Below are positions 3,556 through 19,817 of a stretch of DNA of 64,000 nt, in pieces. The translations under genes and the position numbers were made by a program. Numbering within the stretch: the first letter of the stretch is position 1; each line of letters begins with the position of its first letter. Location of the stretch: assembly GCA_965223325.1 (NCBI GenBank), contig CBDCWI010000001.1, forward strand, positions 1,472,001 to 1,536,000. Reading direction: 5' to 3'. The notes below the pieces were generated by a model, which saw nothing but the letters and a program-made list of their open reading frames with translations, made no database searches and was not told where the DNA came from. The DNA is from Candidatus Multivoradales bacterium. GTDB lineage: Bacteria > Acidobacteriota > Thermoanaerobaculia > Multivoradales > Multivoraceae.

Positions 3556-4680
3556 TCACGTCGCCGCCGCTCGCCACTCCGCAAACTCAGTCTCCAGGAA
3601 GCGAACGATACGGGCCCCGGTCTCGTCCCAGGTGGGCATTGTCCTCCAGGCCGAAAGCGCCGCCAGCGCCATCTCCGCCAGACGCTCGCGATCGCTGGCC
3701 AGTGCATCGATTCGGGTGGCAAGAAGTGCCCGGTCGTCGCGCGGTACCAGGAAGCCGGTTACGCCGTCTTCGACGATTTCATGCGCAGCCCCGCTTCGTG
3801 ATGCAAGAACCGGCAGGCCAAAGCCCATCGCCTCCGCGTAGACCATGCCGAATCCCTCCCAGGTCGAAACCACAGCCAGCACGTGGCACGCCGCCAGCAA
3901 CTGGCAGAGGGCATCGTCTGGAAGGGGACCATGGAATCGAACCCGGTCCGTGAGCCCAAACTCCTCGACCAGCAGACGAGCACGTCGCGTTTCCCTTGGC
4001 TCGACTTCGAGATCGCCCACCACTTCGAGGGTGACCTCCGAGCGGCAGCCTGCGAGCGCGCGAATCAGAGACGCGAGACCTTTGCGGGCGATCACATTGC
4101 CGACAAAAACCAGGCGCAGCGCACCCTGATCCCCCGCGCGGTTCGCGACGTTCTCGGCCACAATCGACGCACCGGGAGAGAGCCGGTCTCGACCCGGCCG
4201 CGCGACGACGGCCGGCCGGCCACCAATCGCGCACAGTGCATCGACCGACGCACGGGTGGTCTCACTGTTGAAGATGAAACCGTCGACCCGCCGAAGGTAG
4301 GCACGTTCAACGGCGCGATGAAGTGGCTGTATAAGCGGCGTGTGAGGTTCGCTCGAGCGCAGGTGATGAACAACCGAGATGATCGGCAGGCGTCGCCCAT
4401 CGACCAAGGGTTTCGGCGAGCGAAAGAGCACTGGGTGGCAGAGCTCATCTTCGAGCAGGAGGTCGAGACCGGCGAGCTCGTGATCCAGGGAGGCTTCACC
4501 TTCGAAGCCGGTGCCCCGAAAGAGGGAGCGCGCGAACCCCACCGACCACGAGTCGAGTTTTGTCGGCAGTAGGCACACCCCATGGCCCGCGCGCTCCAAT
4601 GATGAGACCACTCGCAGGTCAAAGAGGTTCCCGCCAGTTCGATCATTGATCGAGGCAGGCACCAGCCAGCCCACCCTCAT
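3556..4680 (-). CDS. Glycosyltransferase family 4
   Basis: TGGNLFD N-terminus, FVGNVIARKG and EGFGMVYAEAM motifs. Confidence 0.92.
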   Translation of the reverse strand: MRVGWLVPASINDRTGGNLFDLRVVSSLERAGHGVCLLPTKLDSWSVGFARSLFRGTGFEGEASLDHELAGLDLLLEDELCHPVLFRSPKPLVDGRRLPIISVVHHLRSSEPHTPLIQPLHRAVERAYLRRVDGFIFNSETTRASVDALCAIGGRPAVVARPGRDRLSPGASIVAENVANRAGDQGALRLVFVGNVIARKGLASLIRALAGCRSEVTLEVVGDLEVEPRETRRARLLVEEFGLTDRVRFHGPLPDDALCQLLAACHVLAVVSTWEGFGMVYAEAMGFGLPVLASRSGAAHEIVEDGVTGFLVPRDDRALLATRIDALASDRERLAEMALAALSAWRTMPTWDETGARIVRFLETEFAEWRAAAT

Positions 4681-4765
4681 CCCGGGAAAGGAAGCGTTGC
4701 GTGGTTCTTGGGGGCAAGCATGAGATTGGTCCGGGTTGCCGAAGCGTTCGCCGTCTCGGGGCGCG

Positions 4766-5185
4766 TCAGGTCGTGCTCTTCTTCGGCCGGTCTCGATACG
4801 ATGCCCGGGCGATCTCGTTCTCCCACACCATCACCTCCAGCTCATCGAGGTGGCCAAGATCGAGACTGGCATTCAGGCGCTCCCACAGAACCCGCGCAAA
4901 GAGCTCGATGCTCGGATTGCGACCCTCAAACTCGGCGTGGTCGTTGAGGGTCGTGTCCTTCCAACGTGCGACCTCGGACTCGAGCGCCGCCTCGACATCG
5001 ACGATGTCGACCAGATAGTCGTGCTGATCGAGCGTCCGGCCTTCGAGCGTCAGCTCGACCCGGTAGTGATGGGAGTGCCAGCGATTCTCGTCGCCCCAAT
5101 CGCCGCCCACCAGAAAGTGCTGGGCGACGAAGTCGCGAGCGACGACCAGGCTATGGATGCCGGTACTCACAAGGCGATCACTCAC
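4766..5185 (-). CDS. 6-pyruvoyl-tetrahydropterin synthase (COG0720) family protein, Cys-less subtype
   Basis: AQHFL...HSHHY, LVDI, NPSIE and WENE motifs; no QueD-type CxxxHGH. Confidence 0.85.
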   Translation of the reverse strand: MSDRLVSTGIHSLVVARDFVAQHFLVGGDWGDENRWHSHHYRVELTLEGRTLDQHDYLVDIVDVEAALESEVARWKDTTLNDHAEFEGRNPSIELFARVLWERLNASLDLGHLDELEVMVWENEIARASYRDRPKKSTT

Positions 5186-5197
5186 CTAGAGGCGCAC

Positions 5198-6667
5198 TCA
5201 CAGCGCTCCACCAGCCCAATCGTCAGCTGGCTGTTGGTCGTCGCCTTCGCGTGCGATCTCACCAATCAGAACCAGGCTCTCCCCGACCCAGCGGTAGCGC
5301 GTTCGCACGAGTCGCGGCAACGCGGCCCGCTGGGAGATACCGAGATCGCCAATCGCCGAAAGGCCGCCAACCAATACAGGTGCCACCGTCACAACGAGAC
5401 GATCGACGGCGTCGGCGCGCAGAAACGAGGTAATGACCCGTCGACCGCCCTCGACCATCAAGCTCCGCAGCCCACGGTCGCCGAGGCAAACGAAAAGCGA
5501 CGGCAGGTCGACCCAACCGGTCTCGGCGTCGGCAGGAAACCGCTCGACCACCGCTCCGCGCGCCTCGAGTGCTAGCTGCCTGTCACGCGGGGCGCCTAGG
5601 GTTGTGGCAATGAGCGGCGCCACCGCACCCTCGAGAAGCTGCGACTCGAGCGGCAAACGAAGCTGGCTGTCGAGCACCACGGGCTGAGGATCGTCGCCTC
5701 GCACCAGGCGAACGGTCAACCGAGGGTCGTCGGCAATGACGGTCTCGACGCCGACCAGAATCGCATCGTGGCGGGCACGCATGCTGTGTGTGAGCTCGAG
5801 CGCCTGCGATGAGCTCAGGGTCATCGCACTCCCGCGCCGGTTGGTGATCGAACCGTCGAGACTCTGGGCGTAGGTCAGGGTGACGGTCGGTCGGCCGACT
5901 GCGGCACCGTCGATGCCCACCAGAGTCGAGCTCGGCCCTGTGCTCTCGGCCGCCGAGGCATCGGGCGCGGCGCCGGGGGTACTGGCCACTCGCGCCGCGT
6001 TCGGAACCAGGGCGTCGAGCTCGAGCAGGTGCCGCATACGCTTGACCTTGGTCTCGAGGTAACCGGCGTTCTCCGGCGTCGCCGGAACTTCGAGGGCCAC
6101 CCGCTCGACCTGCTCGAACCCCTCGGCAATCAGCCCTTCGACCTTGGTGGGGTTGTTCGTCATCAAGCGCACCGAGCCAACGCCGAGATCGAACAACATG
6201 TCGGCGGCCACCCCGTAGTGGCGCTCGTCGGCACGGTGGCCGAGCTCGAGGTTGGCCTCGACCGTGTCGTAGCCGGCATCCTGCAGGTTGTAGGCGCGCA
6301 GCTTCTCGAGCAGGCCAATGCCGCGACCTTCCTGGCGCAGGTAGAGGATGGCTCCGCGGCCCGCCTCGGCGACGCGCTTCATCGCCTGCTCGAGCTGCTT
6401 GCCGCAGTCGCAGCGCAGCGAACCCAGCACGTCGCCCGTGAAGCACTCCGAATGGATCCGCACCAGAACGTCCTGGCCAGCAATGTCGCCCATCACCAGC
6501 GCGAGGTGGTCTTTGTCGTCACCGGGTTGCCGGTAGAGGTGGAGCTCGAACTCCCCTTCCTCGGTTGGCAGGCGCGAGCTGGTCAAACGACGCGCAGCGG
6601 CACGCACGGCCTCAGCCTCGGTGATGGCGCTGGCGCTCGGACTCTTGGGTAGCTCGCGATCGGACAT
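5198..6667 (-). CDS. ribA: GTP cyclohydrolase II fused to a RibD C-terminal reductase domain
   Basis: VRIHSECFTGDVLGSLRCDCG, YLRQEGRGIGL and LMTNNPTK; then YAQSLDGSI, DDPRLTVR and LMVEGG. Confidence 0.92.
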   Translation of the reverse strand: MSDRELPKSPSASAITEAEAVRAAARRLTSSRLPTEEGEFELHLYRQPGDDKDHLALVMGDIAGQDVLVRIHSECFTGDVLGSLRCDCGKQLEQAMKRVAEAGRGAILYLRQEGRGIGLLEKLRAYNLQDAGYDTVEANLELGHRADERHYGVAADMLFDLGVGSVRLMTNNPTKVEGLIAEGFEQVERVALEVPATPENAGYLETKVKRMRHLLELDALVPNAARVASTPGAAPDASAAESTGPSSTLVGIDGAAVGRPTVTLTYAQSLDGSITNRRGSAMTLSSSQALELTHSMRARHDAILVGVETVIADDPRLTVRLVRGDDPQPVVLDSQLRLPLESQLLEGAVAPLIATTLGAPRDRQLALEARGAVVERFPADAETGWVDLPSLFVCLGDRGLRSLMVEGGRRVITSFLRADAVDRLVVTVAPVLVGGLSAIGDLGISQRAALPRLVRTRYRWVGESLVLIGEIAREGDDQQPADDWAGGAL

Positions 6668-6838
6668 GGCAGTGCACACCGTGCCCGTGAATCAGCCCGA
6701 GCATCCGCGGACACCTTGGAGGTTTGCGGCGCGACGGCCTGGCGGGATCGAGCGACGGCAAGCAGCCAGTATATCGCTCGCCCGGGTCCGGAACCCGCCC
6801 GCGGAACGCCAACGCAGAGCGGCTCTGGGAGACGGCTT

Positions 6839-6973
6839 CTAGTTCGCGGCGCAGCCCGCGAGGCTCAGTACGACGGGCAAAGTGACGAGAACGACGAAGT
6901 AGAACGCCACGACCAGCGCCCAATAGAGGCGACTGTGGTGAGGGCGGGTGGCGGTTGAATCTGTCGTCGTCAT
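6839..6973 (-). CDS. 44-aa single-TM peptide MTTTDSTATRPHHSRLYWALVVAFYFVVLVTLPVVLSLAGCAAN (below the ORF-track size cutoff)
   Basis: Translated by hand; GGGAGG SD upstream; long hydrophobic stretch; LAGC lipobox-like end; gap-free similarity to the A2M N-terminus. Confidence 0.7.
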   Translation of the reverse strand: MTTTDSTATRPHHSRLYWALVVAFYFVVLVTLPVVLSLAGCAAN

Positions 6974-7079
6974 GGTGGGGTCCCCTCCCAGCGGTGGAGC
7001 AACGGTCTCGATCAAAGAGACCTGAGGTCATCGGAGCGGCGGTCGGTGTCCGGGCCGCGGGAAGATTGTTTCGCCTGGA

Positions 7080-7098
7080 TGTGGCGACAATGTGACGA
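7080..7098. promoter_or_regulatory. Direct-repeat box TGTGGCGA-caat-GTGACGA (11-bp period) upstream of the small peptide gene
   Basis: 16/19 identical to the box at 18065-18083 upstream of the A2M gene, same orientation relative to the gene. Confidence 0.6.
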
Positions 7099-7368
7099 AG
7101 TAGGGAAGAGCAATTTCTCTTGATCTGGAACTGGCTAACAATACATGGGTGGTCGAGTTCCCCATTCCCAGGTGGCCAGGGCAAACCTCGAGCAGACTCT
7201 GAGCGCCGCTTTCGTCGCCGAGCTCTACGAGCGCTCGAGCGATCAACAAACGGGCGCGCATCGACTCCTAACGTCGGTCGCAGCTGACCGAGTTACCCCG
7301 TACACGTGATGAGTACACGGAGTTAGACAGGCTCCTCCAGAGCCCGAGAGACACGGTAGGATTCGCGC

Positions 7369-8133
7369 ATGGCATCAGACAGAAAAACCGTGGGAACTTC
7401 CCTCGGGTTCTTGGCGCTGCTTCTGGCCGTCGGCACCGTCGTGCTCTGGTTTCGACTGGCCCGGAACGTGGCGATCCCCGAGGACAGGACGGCCTTCGTC
7501 GCACTATGGGTGCTCGCCGCCGCCCTCGGCATCGCCGCCTTCATCAAGCGCACCCGCTGGTTCGGAGGGATCGCTGCGGTGCTCGGCATCGGGGTCGCTG
7601 CCTTCCTGGCGTTCACGGTGGCCATCAGCCGCCAGGATGTGGCGCCAAACGCCATCGAGGTCGGCGAGACGATCCCCCACTTCACCGCGCTGGACGATCG
7701 AGGCCAGCACTTCGACTCCGCAAGCCTCGACGGCAGGCGAGTCCTGCTCAAGTTCTTTCGCGCCCACTGGTGACCGTACTGTGTCGCCGAGTTACGGCGA
7801 TGGGAAGAGCTTCGATCCGAGTTCGATCGGCTCGACGTCCAGGTAGTCACCGTCAGCACGGATCTCCCTGAGGAGATTGCCGAAAAGCGCAAACACCACG
7901 GCCTGCAGGCCATCATGCTCTCGGATCGAGATCTCAAGGTCACCGACGGGTTCGGACTCCGCAACCTGGGCCCACATTCTGGACCGCCGTCGGGCGCCGA
8001 GGCGTTGCCGGTCCCTACCACGCTTCTGATCGACAGCGACGGCAAGGTGCTCTGGATCGAGCATTCAGAAAACTACCAGCGGCGTTCAGGACCGGAGTTC
8101 GTCCTCGCCGCACTCAAGACTCACCTCGACTGA
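7369..8133 (+). CDS. Membrane-anchored AhpC/TSA (peroxiredoxin-like, thioredoxin-fold) selenoprotein with a UxxC motif
   Basis: In-frame TGA at 7771-7773 gives FFRAHW-U-PYCVAEL, the position of canonical WCPxC; frame continues through SDRDL...PTTLLIDSDGKV to the stop at 8133; hairpin follows the TGA. Confidence 0.88.
7783..7801 (+). promoter_or_regulatory. Bacterial SECIS-like hairpin
   Basis: GUCGCCG-AGUUA-CGGCGAU; 16 nt lie between the UGA and the loop. Confidence 0.7.
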
Positions 8134-8139
8134 GCCTTT

Positions 8140-8400
8140 CTAGTGTCCTGGGTCACAAAACCACGACAAAGACCTCAGCCCCTTTCTAAAGCGAGTAGAC
8201 CCAGATCGCCGGACCGCCGCCACCTCGGCGCCTCCACACAGCGTTATCTCGGTTGAGCCGGACAGGGCAGCCCTCCAAGGCTGACATGTGAACGTTCGAG
8301 ATGCCGACAACAAAGGCACATCTGACAGTCTGCGACCTCCTCGAGTCGGGGCCTCTTCTGGTAGAGGTATTGTCAAATGTCGTTCTGAGTTGATCTAGGC
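8140..8400. mobile_element. Degenerate IS end(s), no intact transposase
   Basis: CTAGTGTCCTGGGTCACAAA end (minus-strand frame ending ...CDPGH*) and GAGGTATTGTCAAATG resemble IS termini; region lacks convincing genes and lies next to a TA module. Confidence 0.35.
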
Positions 8401-8874
8401 GGCGGGTGGATGCCGCGCACAGTCGGGGTGGGTTTTGAGTCGAAGTCGTGGCGCATGACTACGCCTCGCCACCGACCCAACGTGTAGCCCGATTCACAAA
8501 TGACCGTTGGTCAATGGCGAGGGTCATCCGCTGAGATTCGGCTCCCCTGCAGGAGGTCGGTGGTTCCGTGCGAAGGTCATGGCCCATCAACTGCGATATG
8601 TCCCCACCGACGCAAGCGGTTGGGGAGTCGTCGAAGGCGAATCGTCAACGGGTTCTTCCCGTTGGCGCCATCGTCACACCTACGCGAACTGCTCATCGGG
8701 ATCATCGGTCGCGCGCAGCGAAAAACCGGAAGCCGGATCCACTCCCATCGGGGCATGTAGAGGCGGATGGTAGGGCGCACAGAGGCTCGACGCTTCGTCT
8801 TGCCCGGCTTTGCCGCCCTAAGACTTACCTCTACCGAACGCCTGTCGCGGACAGACCACGAGGCAAGGGAGTGT

Positions 8875-9351
8875 CTACTTGGCTTGGAGGTTGTCCACCA
8901 TTTCAGCGCTGAGCAGCACCCGAACTCCGTAGCGTAAGAGTCCTGTGAAGTGCCGGCGGTTTTCGGTCACGACTGTGGTTGCGCCACTGAGCCTCGCGAT
9001 CTCGGCGATGTGGACGTCGTAGATCCTCCCGCCGGCGACACCATCGGCGGCCGCTGACGAGAGAAACGTCTGCCGGTGTTCTTCGGGAAGGGCGTCCACC
9101 TCGAAGAGCGTCAAGAGCTGCTCCTCTACAAATCGCACTGCAATCTCAGGAGCGAGCCGATACTCCTCGGGGAGTCGGGTTGTCACAGAGTAGAACTCGA
9201 GGCAGCAGTGCCAAGCAGTTCGCGGTGCAGGCAGGGTTCCGTCCGCCACGGCATCGAGAAGCACAAGGGGCGCTTCCGACTGGCTCCCCAGATCGATCAT
9301 TCCTGCGACAAGAACGCTGGTATCAAAAAAGACGCCAGTCAGTCGGGCCAA
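8875..9351 (-). CDS. vapC: PIN-domain toxin (VapC-like)
   Basis: FFDTSVLV, EFYSVTTR, IYDVHIAE and VTENRRHF PIN motifs; overlaps the antitoxin gene. Confidence 0.88.
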   Translation of the reverse strand: MARLTGVFFDTSVLVAGMIDLGSQSEAPLVLLDAVADGTLPAPRTAWHCCLEFYSVTTRLPEEYRLAPEIAVRFVEEQLLTLFEVDALPEEHRQTFLSSAAADGVAGGRIYDVHIAEIARLSGATTVVTENRRHFTGLLRYGVRVLLSAEMVDNLQAK

Positions 9352-9596
9352 CGGTCGCGCTCTTCCTCGATCAACTCGACGATGTCGACGGGCGGAAGCT
9401 CCTCGGAAGAACTTTGCGGCCTTGCAATGAGGCGTCCGTTCCGCTCGAAGAGCTCAGGTCCCGGAACCGCTCGTACCAGGCGCAGGCTGAAGCCCTCGAG
9501 ACGGAACTCGATCTCGGTACCAGGACCGAAGCCTAGACGCTTCCTGAGTGGGGCAGGAATGACCAAGCGGCCTGCCTTGTCAATGGTAGCAGTCAT
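9339..9596 (-). CDS. vapB: AbrB/MazE/SpoVT-family antitoxin (VapB-like)
   Basis: TIDKAGRLVIPAPLRKRLGFGPG swapped-hairpin motif. Confidence 0.9.
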   Translation of the reverse strand: MTATIDKAGRLVIPAPLRKRLGFGPGTEIEFRLEGFSLRLVRAVPGPELFERNGRLIARPQSSSEELPPVDIVELIEEERDRWPD

Positions 9597-9622
9597 GCCA
9601 TGATAATACCATATAAAATGGA
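9597..9622 (-). promoter_or_regulatory. Extended -10 (TGGTATTAT) 6 nt before the antitoxin ATG; probable leaderless promoter with CCAT/ATGG inverted half-sites
   Basis: Minus strand reads ccattttatatggtattatcatggcATG. Confidence 0.55.
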
Positions 9623-9772
9623 GGAGAGGCTTCCCGACCGGCCAGACCTCATCGCGCAGAGCCTTCTTTCCTGCTTAGAACCCAACGTTTGGAAGGCCGG
9701 AGCCTCCGAGAAGAGCGAGCAACGAGCGCCCGCGTGATCGGTGCCAGGCGAGAACGAATCGCCCACTCCTTC

Positions 9773-12046
9773 CTAACGAACCGCGAAGGCGACGACCGGT
9801 GTTTCCCTGGTCTGGCCGTCGGTCAGCAGAACACGAGCGTAGGTGTTGTGTTCGCCGCGGGTGGGTTGCCAGATGAAGTGGCGTTCACCGGGGCCTGTCT
9901 TACCTACGAGGTGATTGTCCACGTACCACTGGGTCAACGCGACGCCCTTGGCACTCGCAAGGCGCAGCGCGAAGGCTTCCAGTTCGTCGGGGATGCGGGG
10001 ATCGAGCGCCAGGTGGAGGCCGGGGGTGGGGCTCTCCAGGCGAACGGCAGGGCGTTGGCGAGCGCTGGGGTGGGCGGCCCGTTGTGTCGTCGGCAGGGTG
10101 TCGGAGGCCGAACCGTGTACGGGGCAGGTGGCCTGTGGCTCGTGCCCGCGGCGGAACCACTCGTCGTGTCGCGGGCAGGTGAGAGCGGCGCGGGCGCCGG
10201 TGACTGAGCAGACAGCGTGTTGGACCAGCTGGGGGTCGAGGTTCAGCCGTTCGGGTTGCAAAGAGGCGCCGGCGCGCCGGGTCAGGGCGTCGAAGACTGA
10301 GCGCAGGGCGAGGGCCGGGCCGAAAGATCCTGAGACGTCAACGGTGGGACTGCGGTCGGCATTGCCCATCCAGACGCCAACGACATAGCGCGAATCAAAG
10401 CCCACTGCCCACGCGTCGCGATGATCGTTGGAAGTGCCGGTCTTGATGGCGGTCTGGCGACCGCGGTCGAGTACCGAGCCGCCGCCAAACTCGAGTTGGC
10501 GGGCCTTGGGGTCTGAGAGCATGTCACCAAGGAGGGTGGCGACCGCATACGGCATGACCCGCCGGGACTTCGCCTGGGCCGCTCTCTGTTCGTCTAGCGT
10601 TCGGATGAGCGGGCGCCACTCTCCACCGCGCGCGATGGCGGCGTAGGCGGTGACCAACTCTTCGAGGGTCACTTCGCCGTTCCCCAAAGCGAGACCTTCG
10701 CCGTAGTGCGAGGGGTCGCGATCGAGACTGGCGAAACCGAGGTGATGGAGGCGCTCGAGGAAAGCGTCGGTGCCAATGTGCTGGACGGCGCGCACAGCGG
10801 GTGTGTTGAGCGAGTTGGCGAGCGCTACTCTGAGGCGCACCGGGCCGTAGAAGGTGCGGCTGTAGTTTCTGAAACTGTGTTGCCCGTTTCCAACCGCTTC
10901 GACCAGGGGTGCGTCGTCGATGATGGTGGCCGCCGTCCACCCACGCTCCATGGCCATGCCGTAGACGAACGGTTTCAAGGTCGAGCCCGGCTGGCGCGGC
11001 ACGGTCACTTTGTCGATGTGGCCCGCGTCGCGGTCACTTTGAAACCCGAATCCGTTGACCCAGGCCAGGACTTCGCCGCTCTGGTGATCGGCGACCAGCA
11101 CTGCACCATCGCCAACCCGGCGTTCGGCGAGACGCTCGAGGTTGCGATCGAGAATCTCCCGCGCTTCGTGCTGCAGGTTTGCATCGAGGGTCGTACGAAT
11201 GGTTCGCCCCGGCGCCGGGCCGGCCTGCTCGGGCAGTGCAGCGAGGAAGTGGCGCGCGTCGACGGGCGGTCGCGGCGCACGAACGCGCAGCGGGCGCTTC
11301 ACAATCGCTTCTCTTTCTTCTGTGCTCAAGAGACCACGGCGCACCAGCTCGTCGGCGAGCCGCAGCACGGCGGGGCGTGCCGCCTTTGGATCGCGGTGGG
11401 GATCGAGGCGACTCGGCGAACGCACCAGGACTGCCAGGGTGAGGATCTCGCTCGGGCCGAGCGTTCCAAGCTCGCGGTCGAAGGTCTCGCGTGCCGCCTG
11501 CACCACCCCGCGGCGCCTACGCCCATAGGGAACCTGGTTGAGGTAGAAGGTCAGGATCTCCTCTTTCGTGAACCGTGCTTCGAGCGCTTGTGACTCGAAG
11601 CCTTCGACCCAGCGCGACCAGGGCGTGCGGGGCCGGGGCCGGTTGATTCGAATGACCTGTTCCGAGATCGTGCTGGCTCCACGCACTGCCCGAAGCGAGC
11701 GCGCGTTCAAAACGGCGGCATGCATGCGCGCCAGCCAGTCGACTCCTCCGTGGTTCCAGAAGCGCTTGTCCTCCGCCACAACAAAGGCGTCGCGCAACAG
11801 CGGCGGGACCTCTTCCCAGCTCAGTTGATTGTTCAGGTTGGGCCCGTCGCCGCGCTCCTCGGCGAGCACCACGCCGTTGCGATCGAGGTAGGTATCGGTC
11901 GCACCAACGGTCCACGGCGGCAAGCTATCGGGAATCGGCTGGAGGGCCTGCCTGGTCTTGATGATCAGACCAGTAGCGGCAAGGAGCGAGACGACGGCCG
12001 CCACGAACATCCAACGAAGCCAGGGTGCTGAAGGTAAAGAGCGCAT
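9773..12046 (-). CDS. pbpC: Penicillin-binding protein 1C
   Basis: EDKRFWNHGGVD and GASTISEQ (transglycosylase); STLK, SLN and KTG (transpeptidase); directly follows the A2M gene. Confidence 0.92.
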   Translation of the reverse strand: MRSLPSAPWLRWMFVAAVVSLLAATGLIIKTRQALQPIPDSLPPWTVGATDTYLDRNGVVLAEERGDGPNLNNQLSWEEVPPLLRDAFVVAEDKRFWNHGGVDWLARMHAAVLNARSLRAVRGASTISEQVIRINRPRPRTPWSRWVEGFESQALEARFTKEEILTFYLNQVPYGRRRRGVVQAARETFDRELGTLGPSEILTLAVLVRSPSRLDPHRDPKAARPAVLRLADELVRRGLLSTEEREAIVKRPLRVRAPRPPVDARHFLAALPEQAGPAPGRTIRTTLDANLQHEAREILDRNLERLAERRVGDGAVLVADHQSGEVLAWVNGFGFQSDRDAGHIDKVTVPRQPGSTLKPFVYGMAMERGWTAATIIDDAPLVEAVGNGQHSFRNYSRTFYGPVRLRVALANSLNTPAVRAVQHIGTDAFLERLHHLGFASLDRDPSHYGEGLALGNGEVTLEELVTAYAAIARGGEWRPLIRTLDEQRAAQAKSRRVMPYAVATLLGDMLSDPKARQLEFGGGSVLDRGRQTAIKTGTSNDHRDAWAVGFDSRYVVGVWMGNADRSPTVDVSGSFGPALALRSVFDALTRRAGASLQPERLNLDPQLVQHAVCSVTGARAALTCPRHDEWFRRGHEPQATCPVHGSASDTLPTTQRAAHPSARQRPAVRLESPTPGLHLALDPRIPDELEAFALRLASAKGVALTQWYVDNHLVGKTGPGERHFIWQPTRGEHNTYARVLLTDGQTRETPVVAFAVR

Positions 12047-15000
12047 TTAGGGCACCACCTCGTCAGCCGCGTCTTCCAGGTGCATGGGCACCACGAGACG
12101 GCCTGAACCGCTACGACCGAACACGTCCGGGTCGTACATCTCTTCGGCCTCGGCTGACAGCCACTGGAACTCGCCGCCGCTGATGACCTGCCCGACCCAG
12201 GCAAGGTGGTAGCGCCCCGGGCCGAGAAAGTCGGAGTAGAAATTGACCGCGTCGTGACCGAGCTCTCGATGGTAGAAGCCGGAATCGCTCGAACCGAACT
12301 CGCGCCAATCGCGATGGGCCCACCAGTGCGAACGCACTCCGAAGCCATCGCGCGCTTTGTCAGCGTCGACCTGCGAGGCGGTTTCCAGGTCGCGATTCAC
12401 CGGCTCTATTCCACCGGGCACCGGGTCAGAGACAGCAACGAAGTTACGGGCCGTCGGCGCATCGATGAACAGGTCGACGCGCACCAACTCGCCCGCTCCT
12501 AGCTCCACCTTGCCGGCCAGCTGCTGCCATCGACCGTCACGCTGGACGTGAATCTCCCGCACCACCTCAATGCCGGCGTTGGCCGCGGTGTCGGCTGAGA
12601 GCTCCTTCGGAGCCCAGGTCAGGCGGGTGGCCAGGTAGCTCCGCCCGCTGCCTCGACGTTGTGCCTGGAGCTCGAATTCACGCCCGGGCAGGTCGGCATG
12701 CGCACCGAGATCGGAGGCGCCAACCACAAGCGATCGTGGTGTCGCCCGTTTGTCATGCAGCTCCAGCTTTCCCACCCGTCGCCCGTCGAGGCGCGTGGTC
12801 CACACGACGTCTGTGTCCGCGCTCTCGTAGACCGTGGCGAAGTCGCGCATGCCAGCGATACAGAAGACGTTCTCCTGGGTGTTCTGCCAGTGAAAGCGAT
12901 CGTCGCGCGCCGCGGTGATCGAGCGCATCAGGCGGAAGCTGTCGTCGGCCGCATCGATCCCGGTCGGTGAACCGTCGCGTGAACGCACGAGAGCGCTCAG
13001 AATCGAGCATGACGTACGGGTCGAGGAGTAGTGCATGCGAGCCCAGGAACCTCCCAGGGCTTCGTCGAATTGCAGCTTGCCCGCGGTTCGATCAGACGAT
13101 GCAAAGATCGAGTCGCGCAGCACCGTCACCAGGTCGTCGTGGCCCATCACGTCGGCTGCGATCAGGTAGTGCGCGCGACCGAAGAGGCTCATCTCATCGG
13201 CGCGCCGTTGCCAGCGTTCCAACTCGTCGGCGTCGAGGCGACCGCGCAGAGCCAGACCCGCCATCGCCACCGCCCGCGTCGAGAGTTGCATCCGCGGAAC
13301 CCAGGAGTCGCCGAACGCTCGGTCGTTGCGCAGCAACCGATCGAGGTAGCTGTGCAGGCGCTTCTCGGCAGCCTGCGGAATCACGTAGCCGGCCTCTGCC
13401 AGCCACGCCAGCCCGAGCGCCGTGTAGGCACTGAGGTACGGTGAGACGTAGCGGTCTTCGGGCCGCCAGTAGGCCATGCCCCCGTTGGGCGCCTGGAAAC
13501 TCGTCATGTCTGCGAGCACACGCTCGGCCAACTGCTCTGCCCCGTCCCACGCAAAGTCGGCGGGTAGGTAGTCCGCGAGCTCGATCGAGCGCGCCGCGCC
13601 GAGGGCGCGCGAAAGACGTTGCTCCCAGCAGTCGTGCGGATAGTCACGCAGGTAAGCGAGTGCACCGTCAACGGAACCCACCACCGAGGCCAGGGCTCTC
13701 ACTTCGAGCTCGACGGTTTCGGGACGCAGGTTCAGAGGTAACCGCAGGTTCAGGGCGATGTCGTCTTCGGCACTCGTCTGCCAGCTGGCGGCGGTCTCGA
13801 AGAACTGAGCCGGCAGGACGTCGAGGGGAACCCGCAGGAGGTCGCGGTTCTCCTCGTTCGAGCGGTCGTGGGCGCGCACCGTCAGGTTCAGGGTGCCAGG
13901 CCTGTGAACACGCACCGGGAAGACGAGCGGAACCCGCTGGTAGGGCTCGGCCCGAACCGTTCGGCTCAGGGCTCCGGCACTCTCGCCGGGGCCTTCGACA
14001 CTCGCACTCAGTACGAGCTCCCGCGTCTCGTCGGTGCGATTCATGACTGTGAACCGTGCTTCGAACAGGTCGCCTTCGCGCACCTGGTTGGGCAGCGCCG
14101 GTCGCAGCTCGATGGGCTGGTTGACCTTCAGGTTGCCTTCGCCGAGCCCGAAGCGATCGCTCGGCGTCGCCGCCATCGCAACGATGCGCCAACCGGTGAG
14201 GTTGTCGGGCAGCTCGAACTCGATGCGCGCTCGGCCATCGGCGTCGGTTTCGAGCGCCGGGTTCCAATAGATCATCGAGCGGAAGTCGGAACGGAGGGCG
14301 TCGGGGCCAAGCCCATCGCCGCCGGCGTTGGCACCCTTTTTCTCGAACTTCTGCATTCCGATCAGGCGTTTGATGAGGTTGTAGTTCTCGACGTCCAGGG
14401 GCGGCAACTCATAGAAGCCTCGATAGGGATCGAACGCACGGCGCCCACCCTGGATCAAGTCGAAGACCGCCTCGTCGAGCACCGCGACCGCCAGCTGGAT
14501 CGGTTCGGAAACGACGCCTTCGTGCCGAGGCTTGGCGACGATGTTGGCAACCGCCATCTCCCGTGGACGCCAGGTCTCCTTCTCGGGCGTCACCTCGATT
14601 TCGATCTGCTTGTACGGATCGACGACTTCCATGCGCACATAGCCCATCCGGAACGCCGGCTTGCCGAGGTCAACCGTCGCGAAAGACTCGCCACGTTCGG
14701 CCGGCGGAACGTCGACCCTCGGCGAAGTGACCACTGCCGAAAAGTAGAAGCCCGGGCTCTGGTCCGGACCAACCTCGACTTCGACGACCTCGGTCGGGCC
14801 TGCCAGGACCTTCGTCCAGCTCCTCTGGACTCCGAGGCGCTCGACGGTGAAGAGAGCGCGCGCACCGGGGAAGGGATTGCGAATCAGAAAGCGTGCGGTC
14901 TCGCCTACCTCGATCGACGTCGATTCCACTTCGATCGGCAGCTCGTGACCAGGCGGCGAGCGCCAGAGAGCCGCGCCGGCGCCAATGCCCCACCGGCGCG

Positions 15001-17914
15001 TCGTCGAGCGATGCGTTCGCCCATCGGGGGCCTCGACCGAGGTGGTGATCTCATAGAGACCGGGTCGATCGGGGGTGAAGCGGCAGCGCCGGATACCGGT
15101 CTCGGCGGGCTGGTGGGATGGGTCGTCTGGACCACACCTCTCGACGGGAACCCAGTTGCTCTCGTATCTGGTGAGGTAGGCGTTCCCCGCGCCTTTGACC
15201 CGTGCCGCCTTGACTTCTTCGACCTGCACGGTCGTGGTGACTGAAGCGTTCGCGAGGACGGAATCGTTCGAGTCGAAGGCGACGGCTTCGGCCACTGCCT
15301 CTTGGCCCTTCTCGAGCAGCCAGCCCGGCACCCGCAAGCCAACCACCTGGCTTCGACCGCGATAGTGCGCGCTGGCCCGGGAGGCGATGGACTTGCCGCG
15401 GTCGTCGCGCACGCTCGCCTCAACCTCGATGCGCCCGTTGACCACCGCAGAATCGCTGACCTCGAACGAAGAGCTGGCGTCGCCTGAGGCGTCGAGCTCG
15501 AGGTCTTCCTGCAGAACGTCGCGCCGCCTGACCTTGCCGCCGTCGAAACGAAAGCCTGCGGCGACGGGGTGATCAATGCGAATCGGAGTCGGCACCAACG
15601 ACGCGTTGAGTCGCGCTTTCGCGCCACCGTAGGGCCCACCAGAGTGCAAGCGCGCCGCTACATCGGCGGTCACTTCGTCGCCGGGCTCGAATCGATCGCC
15701 GCTCAACTCGGTCGTGACCCGGAAGGGCGAGGGGGTGAAGTCAGTAATCAGCACCCGGAGCGGCGAGAACCTGTAGCGATCGCTGCCGGTAAACGAGACT
15801 TCGAAGTCGTACCAACCCATGGCAGCGTTCTCGGGCACCGACCAGTCGCCCGCGAACGAGCCGAACGCATCGAGTGCGATGTCGCGGCGGGAGAAGGCTT
15901 CGTCGCCCTTGGGATCGAGAATGCGCAGGTCGTACTTGACGTCGCGCGGAGCCACGAGAGTCAGATTGGACTGGTCGCGCAACCAGATCTTCCACTGCAC
16001 GAGACTGCCCGGACGGTAGACGCCCTGCGCGGTCGCGCCCCAGGAGGTCATGTGGCCGAACTGGCGGCGCCTGGTACTCGGGATCCAGCTGTTGTTGGGA
16101 CCTCGCGCGTCGACCTCGAAGTCATAGATCGCCGGCACCAGGGCAAGCGAGCCTCTTCGTTCGACTCGAAACCAGAGCTGCGACTCATCGGCGTCGAAGT
16201 ACCCGGTGCGGTCGAGCTCGGGGTCGACGACAGCGCTGCCAGGCAAGAGCGCAAGGCCCGAAGCGTCTGACACGCCGCGCGCAGCCAGCTTTTCCGGTAC
16301 GTCGAGGTACCGGCCCCTCGCCCGATAGGCACTCACCACCGCACCCTCCACCGGCTGCCCGGTCGCCAGATCGGTGATCCACACCAGGGTGTTCTGGTGG
16401 CCGAGCTTTACGTGCACCTGGAACGGCGTCACCTGGGCAAAGAGTGGCCGTCGATGATCGAACGGTCGCGGCAAGACGTCCGCTGTGACCGCGCCGCTTT
16501 GACCACCCAACCAGCCGCGCACGTCGAGCGGCATGGCGTACGCGATGTCCTGCACCGGATCGACCGGCACATCCACCTCGAGCTCTTCGACCGCCTTCGC
16601 CGTCACCTTCCTGCCGGTGACGTCTACGCCGCTGAGATTCGTGACGTAGATCGGCGGGTGGGTCTGGGCTTCGAGTTCGAGCACCGCGATGGTGTTCGGC
16701 ATCACCAGATCGGGGCGGCGATGATCGGTGGCGAAACGAAAGTCGATCGCTTCGGCAAGCGGGCGGCCGAACTCGTCATGGATCTTTCGCCGCGGCGCCC
16801 GCAGCCGGTAATCGGTGAACGCACGAAGACCCGGCGGCAGTCGCAACCGATACTCGCGGCCGCGTTGATGAAGTTGATCAAGCCGGCTGTAGGACCAGGT
16901 GTTCTCCCAGATGTCGATCTCATCGTTGCCGGCCGTGGGGTCGGGCTCGATGACCAGACCTCGGGCGAGCTCCTCTTTGACAACCGGTGAACTGAAACGC
17001 GCCCAGATCGTGCTCTGCGGGTCGCATGCCGAGGTCGAACCCGCCCCCACGTCCAGGTCTACGGACTGACCCTCGAGCCGGTCACAGGTCACCCCAAGGA
17101 AGCGAGGCTCGGGGAACGTCGCACCCGAGAGGCGCACCTCTTCTTTCTGCCCCAGCAGTGGCCCATGCGGTGAACGCAGCCCGGGCTCTTCACGCACGAA
17201 GATCGGGGTGTCTCCCTCGAGCTCGGCCGCCGGTTCGAGCCTGAAGTTGCGCCCGACCGACGGCACCTCACTGCCAGTCGCCCAGGGCACCGCCACCAGG
17301 GGAACCCGGGCGCCGCCAACCTGCAAGAAGACGTGCTCGGTGAGTGACTGGAGGAGAACATCTTGATCGGTGTAGACCACAAAGCTCGGAAGGTTCGGCG
17401 AGCGCCACTCGGCAAGGTGGACCGAACGAACCTGCGGCCGACTGGTGAAAAAGCTCTCGCTGACCGTTCGTAGGAGCGCCTTGCCGTCGAAGGTCTCGAA
17501 TGGCGGTTCGATGCGCACCGTGTAGCGCGTCGCCGGCTGGAGTGCAGCGTCGCTGGGCAAGCGGCACGACAGGGTGCGTGGATCGGCGAAGCGCCACGCG
17601 CACGGAAGCGGAGGAGAGATCGAAACCGGCAGTTGGGAGTCATCACGGGCCATTTCCCCGAGTGGCACGACCGGACGGGAAAACTGGATGGTGATCTGCT
17701 TGCGCGCCTCGACCTCCTCGCCCCGGGGCGTGACCCGAACGACTCGCAACACATCGTCTGCCGTCTGACCATGCGCCGGCGCTCCGAGGCCGAGCGCCGA
17801 GAGCGCAATCGGGACAAGAACGAGGATCAGCAGATAGAAGATGCCGACCACCAACCAGTAGCGATGAATCTGATGTGACCTGGTGGGCCGAGTGGCGTTC
17901 TGTTCTTTGGACAT
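12047..17914 (-). CDS. Bacterial alpha-2-macroglobulin (1955 aa)
   Basis: Thioester motif YPHDCWEQ; GVYRPG, LPDNLTGW and AEEMYDPD motifs; pbpC downstream; ATG 17914 has an AGGA SD. Confidence 0.93.
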   Translation of the reverse strand: MSKEQNATRPTRSHQIHRYWLVVGIFYLLILVLVPIALSALGLGAPAHGQTADDVLRVVRVTPRGEEVEARKQITIQFSRPVVPLGEMARDDSQLPVSISPPLPCAWRFADPRTLSCRLPSDAALQPATRYTVRIEPPFETFDGKALLRTVSESFFTSRPQVRSVHLAEWRSPNLPSFVVYTDQDVLLQSLTEHVFLQVGGARVPLVAVPWATGSEVPSVGRNFRLEPAAELEGDTPIFVREEPGLRSPHGPLLGQKEEVRLSGATFPEPRFLGVTCDRLEGQSVDLDVGAGSTSACDPQSTIWARFSSPVVKEELARGLVIEPDPTAGNDEIDIWENTWSYSRLDQLHQRGREYRLRLPPGLRAFTDYRLRAPRRKIHDEFGRPLAEAIDFRFATDHRRPDLVMPNTIAVLELEAQTHPPIYVTNLSGVDVTGRKVTAKAVEELEVDVPVDPVQDIAYAMPLDVRGWLGGQSGAVTADVLPRPFDHRRPLFAQVTPFQVHVKLGHQNTLVWITDLATGQPVEGAVVSAYRARGRYLDVPEKLAARGVSDASGLALLPGSAVVDPELDRTGYFDADESQLWFRVERRGSLALVPAIYDFEVDARGPNNSWIPSTRRRQFGHMTSWGATAQGVYRPGSLVQWKIWLRDQSNLTLVAPRDVKYDLRILDPKGDEAFSRRDIALDAFGSFAGDWSVPENAAMGWYDFEVSFTGSDRYRFSPLRVLITDFTPSPFRVTTELSGDRFEPGDEVTADVAARLHSGGPYGGAKARLNASLVPTPIRIDHPVAAGFRFDGGKVRRRDVLQEDLELDASGDASSSFEVSDSAVVNGRIEVEASVRDDRGKSIASRASAHYRGRSQVVGLRVPGWLLEKGQEAVAEAVAFDSNDSVLANASVTTTVQVEEVKAARVKGAGNAYLTRYESNWVPVERCGPDDPSHQPAETGIRRCRFTPDRPGLYEITTSVEAPDGRTHRSTTRRWGIGAGAALWRSPPGHELPIEVESTSIEVGETARFLIRNPFPGARALFTVERLGVQRSWTKVLAGPTEVVEVEVGPDQSPGFYFSAVVTSPRVDVPPAERGESFATVDLGKPAFRMGYVRMEVVDPYKQIEIEVTPEKETWRPREMAVANIVAKPRHEGVVSEPIQLAVAVLDEAVFDLIQGGRRAFDPYRGFYELPPLDVENYNLIKRLIGMQKFEKKGANAGGDGLGPDALRSDFRSMIYWNPALETDADGRARIEFELPDNLTGWRIVAMAATPSDRFGLGEGNLKVNQPIELRPALPNQVREGDLFEARFTVMNRTDETRELVLSASVEGPGESAGALSRTVRAEPYQRVPLVFPVRVHRPGTLNLTVRAHDRSNEENRDLLRVPLDVLPAQFFETAASWQTSAEDDIALNLRLPLNLRPETVELEVRALASVVGSVDGALAYLRDYPHDCWEQRLSRALGAARSIELADYLPADFAWDGAEQLAERVLADMTSFQAPNGGMAYWRPEDRYVSPYLSAYTALGLAWLAEAGYVIPQAAEKRLHSYLDRLLRNDRAFGDSWVPRMQLSTRAVAMAGLALRGRLDADELERWQRRADEMSLFGRAHYLIAADVMGHDDLVTVLRDSIFASSDRTAGKLQFDEALGGSWARMHYSSTRTSCSILSALVRSRDGSPTGIDAADDSFRLMRSITAARDDRFHWQNTQENVFCIAGMRDFATVYESADTDVVWTTRLDGRRVGKLELHDKRATPRSLVVGASDLGAHADLPGREFELQAQRRGSGRSYLATRLTWAPKELSADTAANAGIEVVREIHVQRDGRWQQLAGKVELGAGELVRVDLFIDAPTARNFVAVSDPVPGGIEPVNRDLETASQVDADKARDGFGVRSHWWAHRDWREFGSSDSGFYHRELGHDAVNFYSDFLGPGRYHLAWVGQVISGGEFQWLSAEAEEMYDPDVFGRSGSGRLVVPMHLEDAADEVVP

Positions 17915-18064
17915 GACGGAATCCTGAAGTGGGCAGGGGCGCCTCGAGCTTCGCCCGCGAGAATGTCCGCCGACCGTGAGGTTGCAGGTACGGCGGGTAC
18001 CTGACGATGAGATCGCACGGCAATCGCAACGAAGTGACCGAGGCCGGGCAATTGGGAGGCAGAT

Positions 18065-18083
18065 TGTGGCGAGAGGGTGACGA
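18065..18083. promoter_or_regulatory. Direct-repeat box TGTGGCGA-gagg-GTGACGA upstream of A2M-pbpC
   Basis: Near copy of 7080-7098. Confidence 0.6.
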
Positions 18084-18254
18084 GCGAGGAGAGAGGCGAG
18101 GTGGCCGCGTCGAACGAATCGGCCGAACGTCCCGATTCTTTCGCCTCGAAGCTGGTCAAACAACTCGCGGAGGTGGGCGCAGATAGCGTCGAGCCCGGAT
18201 CTCGCACCGTTGCTATGCTGCGGCCATCATTTGATCCTGCGGAGTTCGAGCACC

Positions 18255-19817
18255 ATGCGCACCCCGGCAAGTCGGTCTGATCTCGGTAAGTCCCTGACCG
18301 CAAAGAATTTCCTTGTTTGCTTCGCAGTTGGCCTGGCTGCGTTCTCCGGCGTTTCGCTGCCCACTGATGCGATGCAACCAGGCGAGCCGACGGTGATCGA
18401 CACGATGGACTTCACCACCATCGACGACGAAGCTGTCCTCGAAATCCGTGCCGGCGGCCCGCTGCTCTACAGCCACTACCGCAACCCGTCCAACGACTGG
18501 GTAGTCGAGCTGGCCAACTGTGTACCCGGTGAAGAGCTCAGCGATGTGGACGTCCAGTCCGGCCTGATCGAGTCGGTCAAGATCTCGAGCGAACGCCTCG
18601 GCCGGGGACGACCCTTGACCACGCTCACCGTCGCGACCCGCACCGCGAGCGTCGCCAGCCTGGTCAATCAAGACGACACCCTGACTGTGACGTTCCGCCC
18701 CAGCGATCGTGGTTCGGTCTACGCCAGCGAGCCCGCGGAACTCGCCTCGGCATCTGCACCCGACCAACCGGCCCTTACCGAGCCCGGAACCCAGCCGGTT
18801 GCCGAAGTGGCAACGCCAGCTGTGGTGGGTGGCGAAGAGACCGAACCACGTGCCCTCGAGACCGGTACCGTCGAACTGGTGCCCGTTGACTCGACGCGCT
18901 CGGAGCCGGGACCGGCGCTCGAGAACCCTGGTCCGCTCGACAGCACCGCCCCCGGAGAACCAGCTGGGACGACAACAACACGCATCCCGCAGCAAACCGC
19001 CCCGCGCCAGGCGCGCGTCGCGCTCACTGGCGCCAGCAGCCCCGTAGCCGGGCCACCAGCAGACGGCGCGGCCGCCAGAAGCCTCAGGGACGTCGAGATC
19101 GAGGGCACCGGGGCCTCGGCGAGTTTTCACCTCGAGGCCGACGGTGAACCCGAATGGAAGAGCTTCTTTCTAGCCGACCCGCCCCGCTTCGTGCTCGACA
19201 TCGATGGCGCCAGCAATGACGTGCGCCGCGGCACGGTCGACGCCCGCACTCCCTGGGTCGAGCGCGTGCGAATCGGCCAGTTCCAGACCAGTCCGTTCCC
19301 GATCACCCGGGTGGTTTTCGACCTGCGCGAGAAGCGCGCACCGTACCTCACTCGCCGCGGAAACGTGTTGGTTGTCTCCTTCGGCGAACCGTTCACCAGC
19401 GACGTCACCGCGACCCCCGACATCACGACAACCACCACGACGACGGTTCCCCGAGGCCCTACCGATCCCGCCAGCGTGGTGCGCGCCTACATCGACGCCT
19501 TCAATCGCGCCAGCGTCGACGACATCTTGTTGACCGTGACCCAGGACATTCAGTGGTTCTCGGTCATCGAGAACCGCCTGCTACTCGAAGCGGAAGGCAC
19601 CGAAGACCTGTCGCGCTCGCTGCGAGCCTACTTCGCGAGCTTTACTGCCCGGTCCGAGATCGAAGACCTGATCGTCAACGGACGCTACGTCTCGATGCGT
19701 GAGCGGGTGCGCTGGAACGCGACAGATGGCACGCCACATACACAGGCTTCCCTGGTGGTTTTCGAGATCGAGGGCGATCGCATCTCGCGAACCTGGTACT
19801 ACCCTTCGCAACCCTGA
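18255..19817 (+). CDS. Secreted AMIN-domain protein with a C-terminal SnoaL/NTF2-like domain
   Basis: Signal peptide; FFLADPPRFVLDIDG...VRIGQFQ...TRVVFDL AMIN motif; Pro/Thr-rich linkers; VVRAYIDAFN...VFEIEGDRISRTWYY. Confidence 0.72.
   Translation: MRTPASRSDLGKSLTAKNFLVCFAVGLAAFSGVSLPTDAMQPGEPTVIDTMDFTTIDDEAVLEIRAGGPLLYSHYRNPSNDWVVELANCVPGEELSDVDVQSGLIESVKISSERLGRGRPLTTLTVATRTASVASLVNQDDTLTVTFRPSDRGSVYASEPAELASASAPDQPALTEPGTQPVAEVATPAVVGGEETEPRALETGTVELVPVDSTRSEPGPALENPGPLDSTAPGEPAGTTTTRIPQQTAPRQARVALTGASSPVAGPPADGAAARSLRDVEIEGTGASASFHLEADGEPEWKSFFLADPPRFVLDIDGASNDVRRGTVDARTPWVERVRIGQFQTSPFPITRVVFDLREKRAPYLTRRGNVLVVSFGEPFTSDVTATPDITTTTTTTVPRGPTDPASVVRAYIDAFNRASVDDILLTVTQDIQWFSVIENRLLLEAEGTEDLSRSLRAYFASFTARSEIEDLIVNGRYVSMRERVRWNATDGTPHTQASLVVFEIEGDRISRTWYYPSQP

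Follow-up and report, generated by a model that had tools for sequence, protein, structure and literature searches.

Why does a peptide of 44 residues carry a membrane helix resembling that at the N-terminus of a much larger alpha-2-macroglobulin (A2M) encoded in the same neighbourhood, and is the short open reading frame (ORF) behind it a gene at all? The question is raised by a locus in the window, the whole stretch of 64,000 nucleotides from a Candidatus Multivoradales bacterium that was analysed here. The initial annotation had offered two answers: a stand-alone membrane partner or decoy, which would co-assemble with or regulate an envelope-defence complex of A2M and PBP1C through a shared transmembrane motif, or a relic left by a partial duplication of the A2M promoter and leader.

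The small open reading frame and its family

The ORF occupies 6842..6973 on the minus strand, from an ATG at 6973-6971 to a last codon at 6844-6842, followed by the stop TAG at 6841-6839, and its translation is MTTTDSTATRPHHSRLYWALVVAFYFVVLVTLPVVLSLAGCAAN. The strong Shine-Dalgarno sequence that had been ascribed to it was confirmed, with GGGAGGGG (6982-6989, minus strand) standing 8 nt before the ATG. The GC content at codon positions 1, 2 and 3 is 0.58, 0.49 and 0.80, respectively, the flanking genes having values of 0.77-0.79 at position 3. The stretch is present in four DNA sequencing runs of one study and in no RNA run, and a scan for promoters and terminators over 6300-7700 returned no promoter-like site and a single terminator-like site, on the other strand and at chance level.

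About 160 nt downstream, and co-oriented, lies a gene for a fusion of GTP cyclohydrolase II and RibD_C (5198..6679, minus strand). This ribA-type fusion is not a conserved neighbour of the small family, the contexts being different in G010 and G015, the two genomes of a second genus that are introduced below. A leader or riboswitch for the riboflavin gene was considered and rejected: 5000-19000 has no Rfam match at E <= 1, the 191-nt spacer and its shuffles fold about equally well (z 0.35), and the neighbour is unconserved. The small ORF stands in a unit of its own. On its upstream side, 395 nt of intergenic DNA separate it from a divergent redoxin gene on the plus strand (7369-8133), and the A2M and PBP1C genes are located 3-11 kb upstream on the same strand, with the redoxin gene and a VapBC-like pair between them and the small ORF.

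Both intervening elements have features of their own. The redoxin gene encodes a membrane-anchored AhpC/TSA-Redoxin protein in whose W-x-P-Y-C active site the place of the first Cys is taken by a single in-frame TGA (7771-7773); when it is read through, a PF00578 match of 83.8 bits spans the TGA. A hairpin, GUCGCCG-AGUUA-CGGCGAU, begins 11 nt past this UGA, and the genome has a tRNA-SeC. The gene is a candidate selenoprotein gene, of the UxxC redoxin type, rather than a broken one. The VapBC-like pair (8875-9596, minus strand) consists of a MazE/AbrB-type antitoxin gene (9339-9596, PF04014) overlapping a PIN-domain gene (8875-9351), and it sits in a stretch of lower GC content (0.58-0.62) between PBP1C and the small ORF.

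Homologues of the peptide were sought in the genomes of 61 relatives, and the search yielded an ORF of 54 aa in G015 and one of 58 aa in G010, both belonging to another genus (g10) of the same family as the window's genome and both with GAAGGAG before the ATG. A database profile built from three small ORFs was searched against 1.84 billion representative proteins and gave 10 matches at E <= 1e-3. Six of them are small proteins of 44-58 aa (P0003, P0004, P0006, P0008, P0009 and P0010), and among the matches is also P0011, a 203-aa N-terminal fragment of an A2M (E 4.4e-5). P0014, a 54-aa V/F-rich variant of P0003 in which V, F or C stands in place of many residues, probably reflects an artefact of sequencing or base conversion, not natural variation. 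Two multi-stretch matches, P0012 (956 aa, five short stretches) and the tandem-repeat protein P0013, were judged to be noise. P0005 and P0007, the latter a member of 66 aa, came from a word-indexed search, and a look-up of clusters yielded four more close variants, one of which goes by the name of "hypothetical protein" in an Acidobacteriota metagenome-assembled genome.

The family as now assembled comprises eight clusters of 44-66 aa, and every member stops 3-6 residues after LSxxG[C/L]. The window peptide has no Pfam match, five family members have no NCBIfam match, and the best Protein Atlas score, 0.83, falls below the lead level of 0.9 and points to no named family. As far as such searches reach, this seems to be a family of small proteins of 44-66 aa so far without a name or description.

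With regard to its distribution, 12 of the 57 genomes of the taxonomic family match at E <= 0.1, strong matches (E <= 1.1e-5) being confined to the window's genome (G000, in two places), G001, G010 and G015; in the other eight the E values are 0.03-0.1 and the frames unrelated. At the level of the order, matches at E <= 0.001 were obtained in 4 of 300 genomes (23 candidates scored per genome). A degenerate codon pattern of the helix module described below was found at three loci (G010, G001 and G015) in 185,579 species genomes, the window's own genome left out; all three are from Acidobacteriota, and one is from Ca. Multivoraceae, class Thermoanaerobaculia. The same pattern gave no matches in JGI metagenomes, and no loci related to P0003 were detected among metagenome contigs or genome contigs.

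Both genomes of genus g10 carry the small family. There a gene for a CYP102-like P450/NADPH-reductase fusion (8678-12337, minus strand, in the G010 locus; 5076-8675, plus strand, in the G015 locus) precedes the small ORF at a distance of 179-418 nt. The orthologue in the window's genome (C1:1878831-1882235) is 58-61% identical and about 400 kb away from the small ORF, and synteny with g10 was rejected in view of this distance and of the absence of any shared context.

Within the window's own genus, G001 (99% complete) has the A2M leader and lacks the small ORF, in a syntenic A2M-PBP1C-(4.6 kb)-ribA arrangement, and the small gene is therefore dispensable within the genus. The part of G001 between the ribA fusion and PBP1C (about 1-2700 of C2:926000-945000) holds overlapping ORFs with near-identical peptide starts, a pattern that suggests a tandem DNA repeat where the window's genome has the small-ORF region.

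The doubt whether the ORF is conserved in relatives is settled by intact homologues, with start, Shine-Dalgarno sequence and stop, in other genera. Its translation, its GC content of 0.80 at the third codon position and homologues that keep the same architecture at 44-66 aa identify the ORF of 44 codons as a real gene, conserved in a few Acidobacteriota, for a predicted small membrane protein. In this respect, short ORFs of such a kind can be validated through comparative genomics alone.

A helix module shared with the A2M leader

Residues 15-42 of the small protein (6848..6931, minus strand) form a membrane-helix module of 28 residues, delimited by alignment and by helical-wheel angles. The alignment, made up of eight small proteins and three A2M N-termini, is gapless through the helix, and F24, Y25, L29, P33, L36, S37 and G40 are invariant in all 11 sequences; the N-tails, of 14-38 residues, do not align. 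Close variants of the small family show 23 substitutions in the tail versus 7 in the helix (counted by eye), and one of these variants has Gly at the otherwise invariant Ser. On a helical wheel, the invariant and near-invariant residues fall within about 300-100 degrees, that is, on one face, formed by Y/W18, V21, Y25, L29, L32, P33, L36 and G40, plus F24 and S37. A one-sided pattern of this kind is typical of specific helix-helix contacts within the membrane, and it speaks for such a contact here, presumably with a partner.

In the small protein RPHHSR is followed by a hydrophobic stretch of 25 residues, a layout common to all 11 aligned sequences. The product would be a single-pass inner-membrane protein, with the variable, positively charged N-tail predicted to be cytoplasmic (N-in), followed by the helix of about 25 residues and by a periplasmic end of 3-6 residues. 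Residues 38-41 read L-A-G-C and resemble a lipobox, the consensus of which is [LVI][ASTVI][GAS]C. Only A-A-N follows the Cys before the stop, with no mature domain and no further coding sequence of A2M or other type found beyond it, and in form the small protein is a signal peptide of the lipoprotein type with hardly any passenger (L-A-G-C-A-A-N-stop). A lipobox-like [LAV]-[AST]-G-C is present in six of the eight small clusters and two of the three A2M leaders; Leu replaces the Cys in two small clusters and in the A2M of this genome (3 of the 11 sequences). The L-A-G-C form suggests possible processing of the small protein by LspA, and the three independent replacements of Cys by Leu mean that lipidation cannot be the conserved function of the family.

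The A2M gene of the window (12047..17914, minus strand) encodes a type I protein of 1955 aa with a CWEQ thioester at residue 1429 and the Pfam domains bMG10, A2M, A2M_BRD and MG2, and the PBP1C gene (9773..12046, minus strand; transglycosylase, transpeptidase and BiPBP_C) lies immediately downstream. Read from 17914, the A2M begins with MSKEQNATRPTRSHQIHRYWLVVGIFYLLILVLVPIALSALGLG, in which the helix module takes up residues 17-44 (17783..17866, minus strand), with Leu for the lipobox Cys. This Cys is kept in the A2M leaders of G001 (LSASGC) and P0011 (LSLSGC); the A2M of the window, with no Cys in its leader, is probably helix-anchored. A search of 61 relatives with the N-terminal 400 residues of the protein matched two, both of this genus. 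A second A2M is present in the window's genome, on contig C2 around 2,907,354 (minus strand), as an open frame of 2024 aa with CVEQ, an ordinary hydrophobic N-terminus and no module, and G001 also has a second A2M, on its contig C2 around 3,259,002.

The resemblance reported in the initial annotation, a gapless match from YW to G with 11 of 24 residues identical, holds, and in the wider core 11 of 28 residues are identical. The ATRP that was said to precede the helix in both proteins does occur in both tails, but out of register, at 5 versus 8 residues from YW, and a shared tail 4-mer arises in 2433 of 200,000 shuffles of both tails (p about 0.012, post hoc). When the 6.69-Mb genome was searched in six frames with the peptide, the peptide itself came first and the A2M N-terminus second (E 5.2e-5), everything further down being noise (from E 1.27). 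At the level of DNA, the small ORF and the A2M leader are 49% identical across the 28 core codons, 6 of the 11 identical residues differ in codon, the invariant Ser being AGC in one and TCG in the other, and a local alignment of the two regions did not rise above shuffles. The resemblance, as these comparisons indicate, is one at the protein level.

Its specificity was measured with a profile derived from six small proteins only and scored on A2M N-termini, which gave 39.7 bits for P0011, 39.3 for P0016 (the A2M of the same-genus G001) and 28.8 for P0015 (the A2M of the window). Among the 120 A2M homologues listed, of 165 at E <= 1e-10, the other 118 have ordinary Sec signal peptides and score at most 3.3 bits, which makes them a control against generic hydrophobic similarity; the module occurs in only 2 of the 120 listed, plus the fragment P0011. 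The module-bearing N-termini score well above these ordinary signal peptides. With a profile of all 11 rows, the only longer proteins returned were again P0011, P0015 and P0016.

Within the 28-residue core, the small ORF shares 14-17 residues with six of the seven other small proteins, 11 with that of G010, and 15 with the P0011 A2M leader. Three positions, 19, 23 and 32, tell the two kinds apart: the small proteins have A/V/G, A and L there, and the A2M leaders L/F, I/L and V/F; the small ORF of the window has the residues of the small type at these positions.

These figures bear on the reading in which the ORF is a partial copy of the A2M 5' end in decay, or a frame without coding function whose resemblance is that of hydrophobic segments in general. 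The ORF is short, it appears in no RNA run and it is absent from G001, all of which would fit; homologues with intact start, Shine-Dalgarno sequence and stop in other genera, the value of 0.80 at the third codon position, the E value of 5e-5 within its own genome and the low scores of the 118 control signal peptides nevertheless make such an origin highly improbable. The relic proposed at the outset is likewise contradicted by a conserved family of fixed architecture, in which the small protein is mostly nearer to the other small proteins than to the A2M leader of its own genome. A truncated A2M pseudogene was rejected, with a best E value of 0.50 when five A2Ms without their leaders were compared by tblastn with positions 4500-9800 of the window, and no A2M-like sequence continues past the small-ORF stop (all tblastn E >= 0.5).

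The lipobox-like motif bears on another reading, according to which LspA cleavage of the A2M prolipoprotein and the stand-alone proteins would lead to the same active peptide of about 40 aa, ending in ...LSxxG. The occurrence of the motif in most clusters of both kinds, a conservation far beyond the needs of export and, as far as the consulted part of the source goes, an enterococcal precedent (PMC7117660) speak for it. Since the Cys has been replaced by Leu three times, however, and the precedent is Gram-positive and plasmid-borne, such a release is very improbable, and so is the further proposal that the peptide, or a fragment of it, would act as a membrane regulator or signal.

The upstream box and the history of the cassette

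The initial annotation had also claimed an upstream box common to both genes. In front of the small gene it reads TCGTCACATTGTCGCCACA (GTCACA-N5-GCCACA; 7098-7080, minus strand), 106 nt before the ATG and within the 395-nt divergent intergenic region; in front of the A2M gene it reads TCGTCACCCTCTCGCCACA (18083-18065, minus strand), 150 nt before the ATG, with 16 of 19 positions identical. This single pair is not significant by itself (score 23 versus a shuffle mean of 21.6 and maximum of 33; p about 0.08), and it becomes convincing only because relatives carry the same element. When the upstream regions of three small ORFs and two module-bearing A2Ms were compared, with mononucleotide shuffles, the best local alignment fell on the same box in 7 of the 10 pairwise comparisons. 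The box is a direct repeat with the consensus G[CT]CAC[AC]-N5-G[CA]CACA[AT], its distance from the ATG in the five regions is 106, 150, 132, 96 and 114 nt, and it is their sole conserved block in a multiple alignment. The claimed box is therefore real, and shared with relatives.

With five upstream regions that stand for three independent lineages at most, and a site regex written after inspection, a leave-one-out PWM was tested on 3000 random 300-nt genome segments, of which 0, 7, 0, 0 and 0 scored as high as the region left out. The two A2M boxes suffice for a PWM that picks up the small-ORF box (0 of 3000), and a PWM from the two g10 boxes finds the small-ORF box of the window and the A2M box of G001 (0 of 3000 each); the latter misses the A2M box of this genome, for which 507 of 3000 random segments do as well. 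Genome-wide, the two boxes of the window are the two top PWM matches, at 32.8 and 26.4 bits, the next reaching 20.0, and the exact 16-base consensus occurs in the whole genome only at these two sites.

A wider regulon was looked for and rejected: over the whole genome the simple direct-repeat pattern shows no enrichment (3 versus 2, and 7 versus 9 in the reversed control), which places the repeat at control level, and only one of the other five repeat sites is just upstream of a gene, that of a putative lipoprotein about 25 nt away. The direct repeat has a period of 11 bp, in which respect it may be likened to the binding sites of response regulators of the winged-helix type. With a box in common, the small gene and the A2M gene would be regulated together; in this genome they would answer to the same DNA-binding factor and would also place the same helix in the inner membrane, possibly with a common membrane partner.

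To judge from these alignments, the whole run from box through spacer, start and variable tail to helix behaves as a single homologous cassette, and this stands before almost nothing in the small genes and before the 1955-aa A2M. The earlier idea of a duplicated A2M promoter and leader is sustained in so far as box and leader go together in this way; what has to be given up is the relic.

A dedicated membrane partner or decoy, which would co-assemble with the A2M anchor or compete with it through the shared helix, has several points in its favour. The two genes, 11 kb apart, have the same helix face and the same box, with the two top PWM matches in 6.69 Mb, and their otherwise variable tails have W18 and the ATRP 4-mer in common (p about 0.012). 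The gene content of relatives, on the other hand, contradicts partner or decoy of A2M-PBP1C as a general function. G010 (97% complete) has the small gene and neither an A2M (PF00207) nor the C-terminal domain of PBP1C (PF06832); G015 lacks PF06832, and its only A2M lies on another contig and has no module; and G001 has a module-bearing A2M without the small ORF. The small family is thus not tied to A2M-PBP1C. In the window itself the small ORF is outside the A2M operon, with the plus-strand redoxin gene and the VapBC-like pair between. A dedicated partner or decoy is on balance unlikely, and a lineage-specific interplay of small protein and A2M in this genome, through the shared box and helix face, is conceivable.

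The history of the cassette may also be read from the A2M side, with module and box arising as the 5' end of an A2M gene and the small genes being functional descendants of truncated 5' copies that later spread to g10. Cassette homology fits either direction, the small ORF is only 11 kb from the A2M gene, and its 15 of 28 residues in common with the P0011 A2M leader put it about as close to that leader as to the small proteins. Such a course is nevertheless rather doubtful, given the ordinary signal peptides of 118 of the 120 A2M homologues listed, the presence of the small family in G010 without any A2M, the separation of small proteins and A2M leaders into two groups at positions 19, 23 and 32, and the stop 3-6 residues past the G in all eight clusters.

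The explanation that we favour, with moderate confidence, is that of a genuine small inner-membrane protein gene whose promoter/operator-plus-leader cassette was fitted to the A2M-PBP1C operon. The direction of the exchange was probably capture, by the A2M of this genus, of a cassette resident in the small gene. Capture is favoured because A2M-PBP1C is patchy in the order, because 118 of the 120 listed homologues have plain leaders, and because a sister genus has the small family without A2M. The operon, whose relatives have plain Sec signal peptides, would in this way have been furnished with the cassette of the resident gene. A quick A2M tree places the three module-bearing A2Ms together with the plain-leader P0018, outside a clade of 57 with 97% support; they sit on long branches at an unresolved fork, which neither supports nor excludes a single origin, and 28 residues cannot root the module.

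As a third course, the leader itself would be the product, with the stand-alone genes and the A2M prolipoprotein releasing the same peptide of about 40 residues under one shared operator. We consider this quite unlikely; were it true, a "signal-peptide-only" gene would mimic or supplement the leader of an envelope-defence protein, in a Gram-negative counterpart of enterococcal pheromone/inhibitor logic or as feedback on the box-binding factor.

In the favoured reading, that of capture, a 1955-aa periplasmic protease trap would reuse, as its export and anchor leader, the helix and operator of a small-protein family not described so far, and a horizontally acquired envelope-defence operon could plug into the promoter-leader cassette of its host. 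A leader with an independent function would be another case of signal peptides acting beyond targeting. A limited probe of the literature found no description of a shared signal-peptide/small-ORF cassette or of such promoter capture, which is weak evidence of novelty.

Comparison with known systems

The type I A2M of E. coli, YfhM, is a lipoprotein, and with lipoprotein signal peptides, the substrates of Lgt and LspA that are found on type I A2Ms, the small family shares a charged n-region, an h-region and a terminal L-A-G-C. The A2Ms of G001 and P0011 carry the same module with the Cys before a mature protein, as such signal peptides do. Unlike them, the small family continues for only 3-6 residues past the Cys, has an h-region of about 25 residues with seven invariant positions and an n-region of 14-38 residues, and has Leu for Cys in 3 of the 11 aligned sequences.

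A likeness in form, read from sequence alone, is offered by enterococci, where, according to the available part of the account, pheromones are cut from lipoprotein signal peptides and inhibitors come from short stand-alone precursors (PMC7117660). In both cases a chromosomal lipoprotein leader has a stand-alone look-alike, conservation reaches up to the lipobox Cys, and the short form terminates at this Cys or shortly behind it. The enterococcal system, in contrast to the small family, is Gram-positive and plasmid-encoded, and the same part of the source describes products of 7-8 residues, known receptors and processing by Eep (PMC7117660).

The criteria for type I bacterial A2Ms, in the portion of the source at hand, are a CXEQ thioester, macroglobulin domains and adjacency to pbpC (PMC5764988). 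The A2M of the window agrees with them in its CWEQ, its Pfam domains and the PBP1C gene next door. It differs from 118 of the 120 listed homologues in that the module of the small proteins, with no Cys, replaces the plain signal peptide.

Small single-helix proteins that bind larger membrane proteins, among them MgrB, AcrZ, KdpF and CydX, have been reviewed (PMC12648545, consulted in part). The small family is similar to the MgrB, AcrZ and CydX type in its length of 44-66 aa, its one helix, conservation on that helix and the absence of a known domain, and a term search of the article, within its accessible text, gave no mention of fusion or of signal-peptide-like small proteins. In contrast to the MgrB and AcrZ type as presented there, it has no sequence relation to any named family in Pfam, NCBIfam or the Protein Atlas and no conserved gene neighbour, and it has a homologue of its helix in the leader of a large periplasmic protein.
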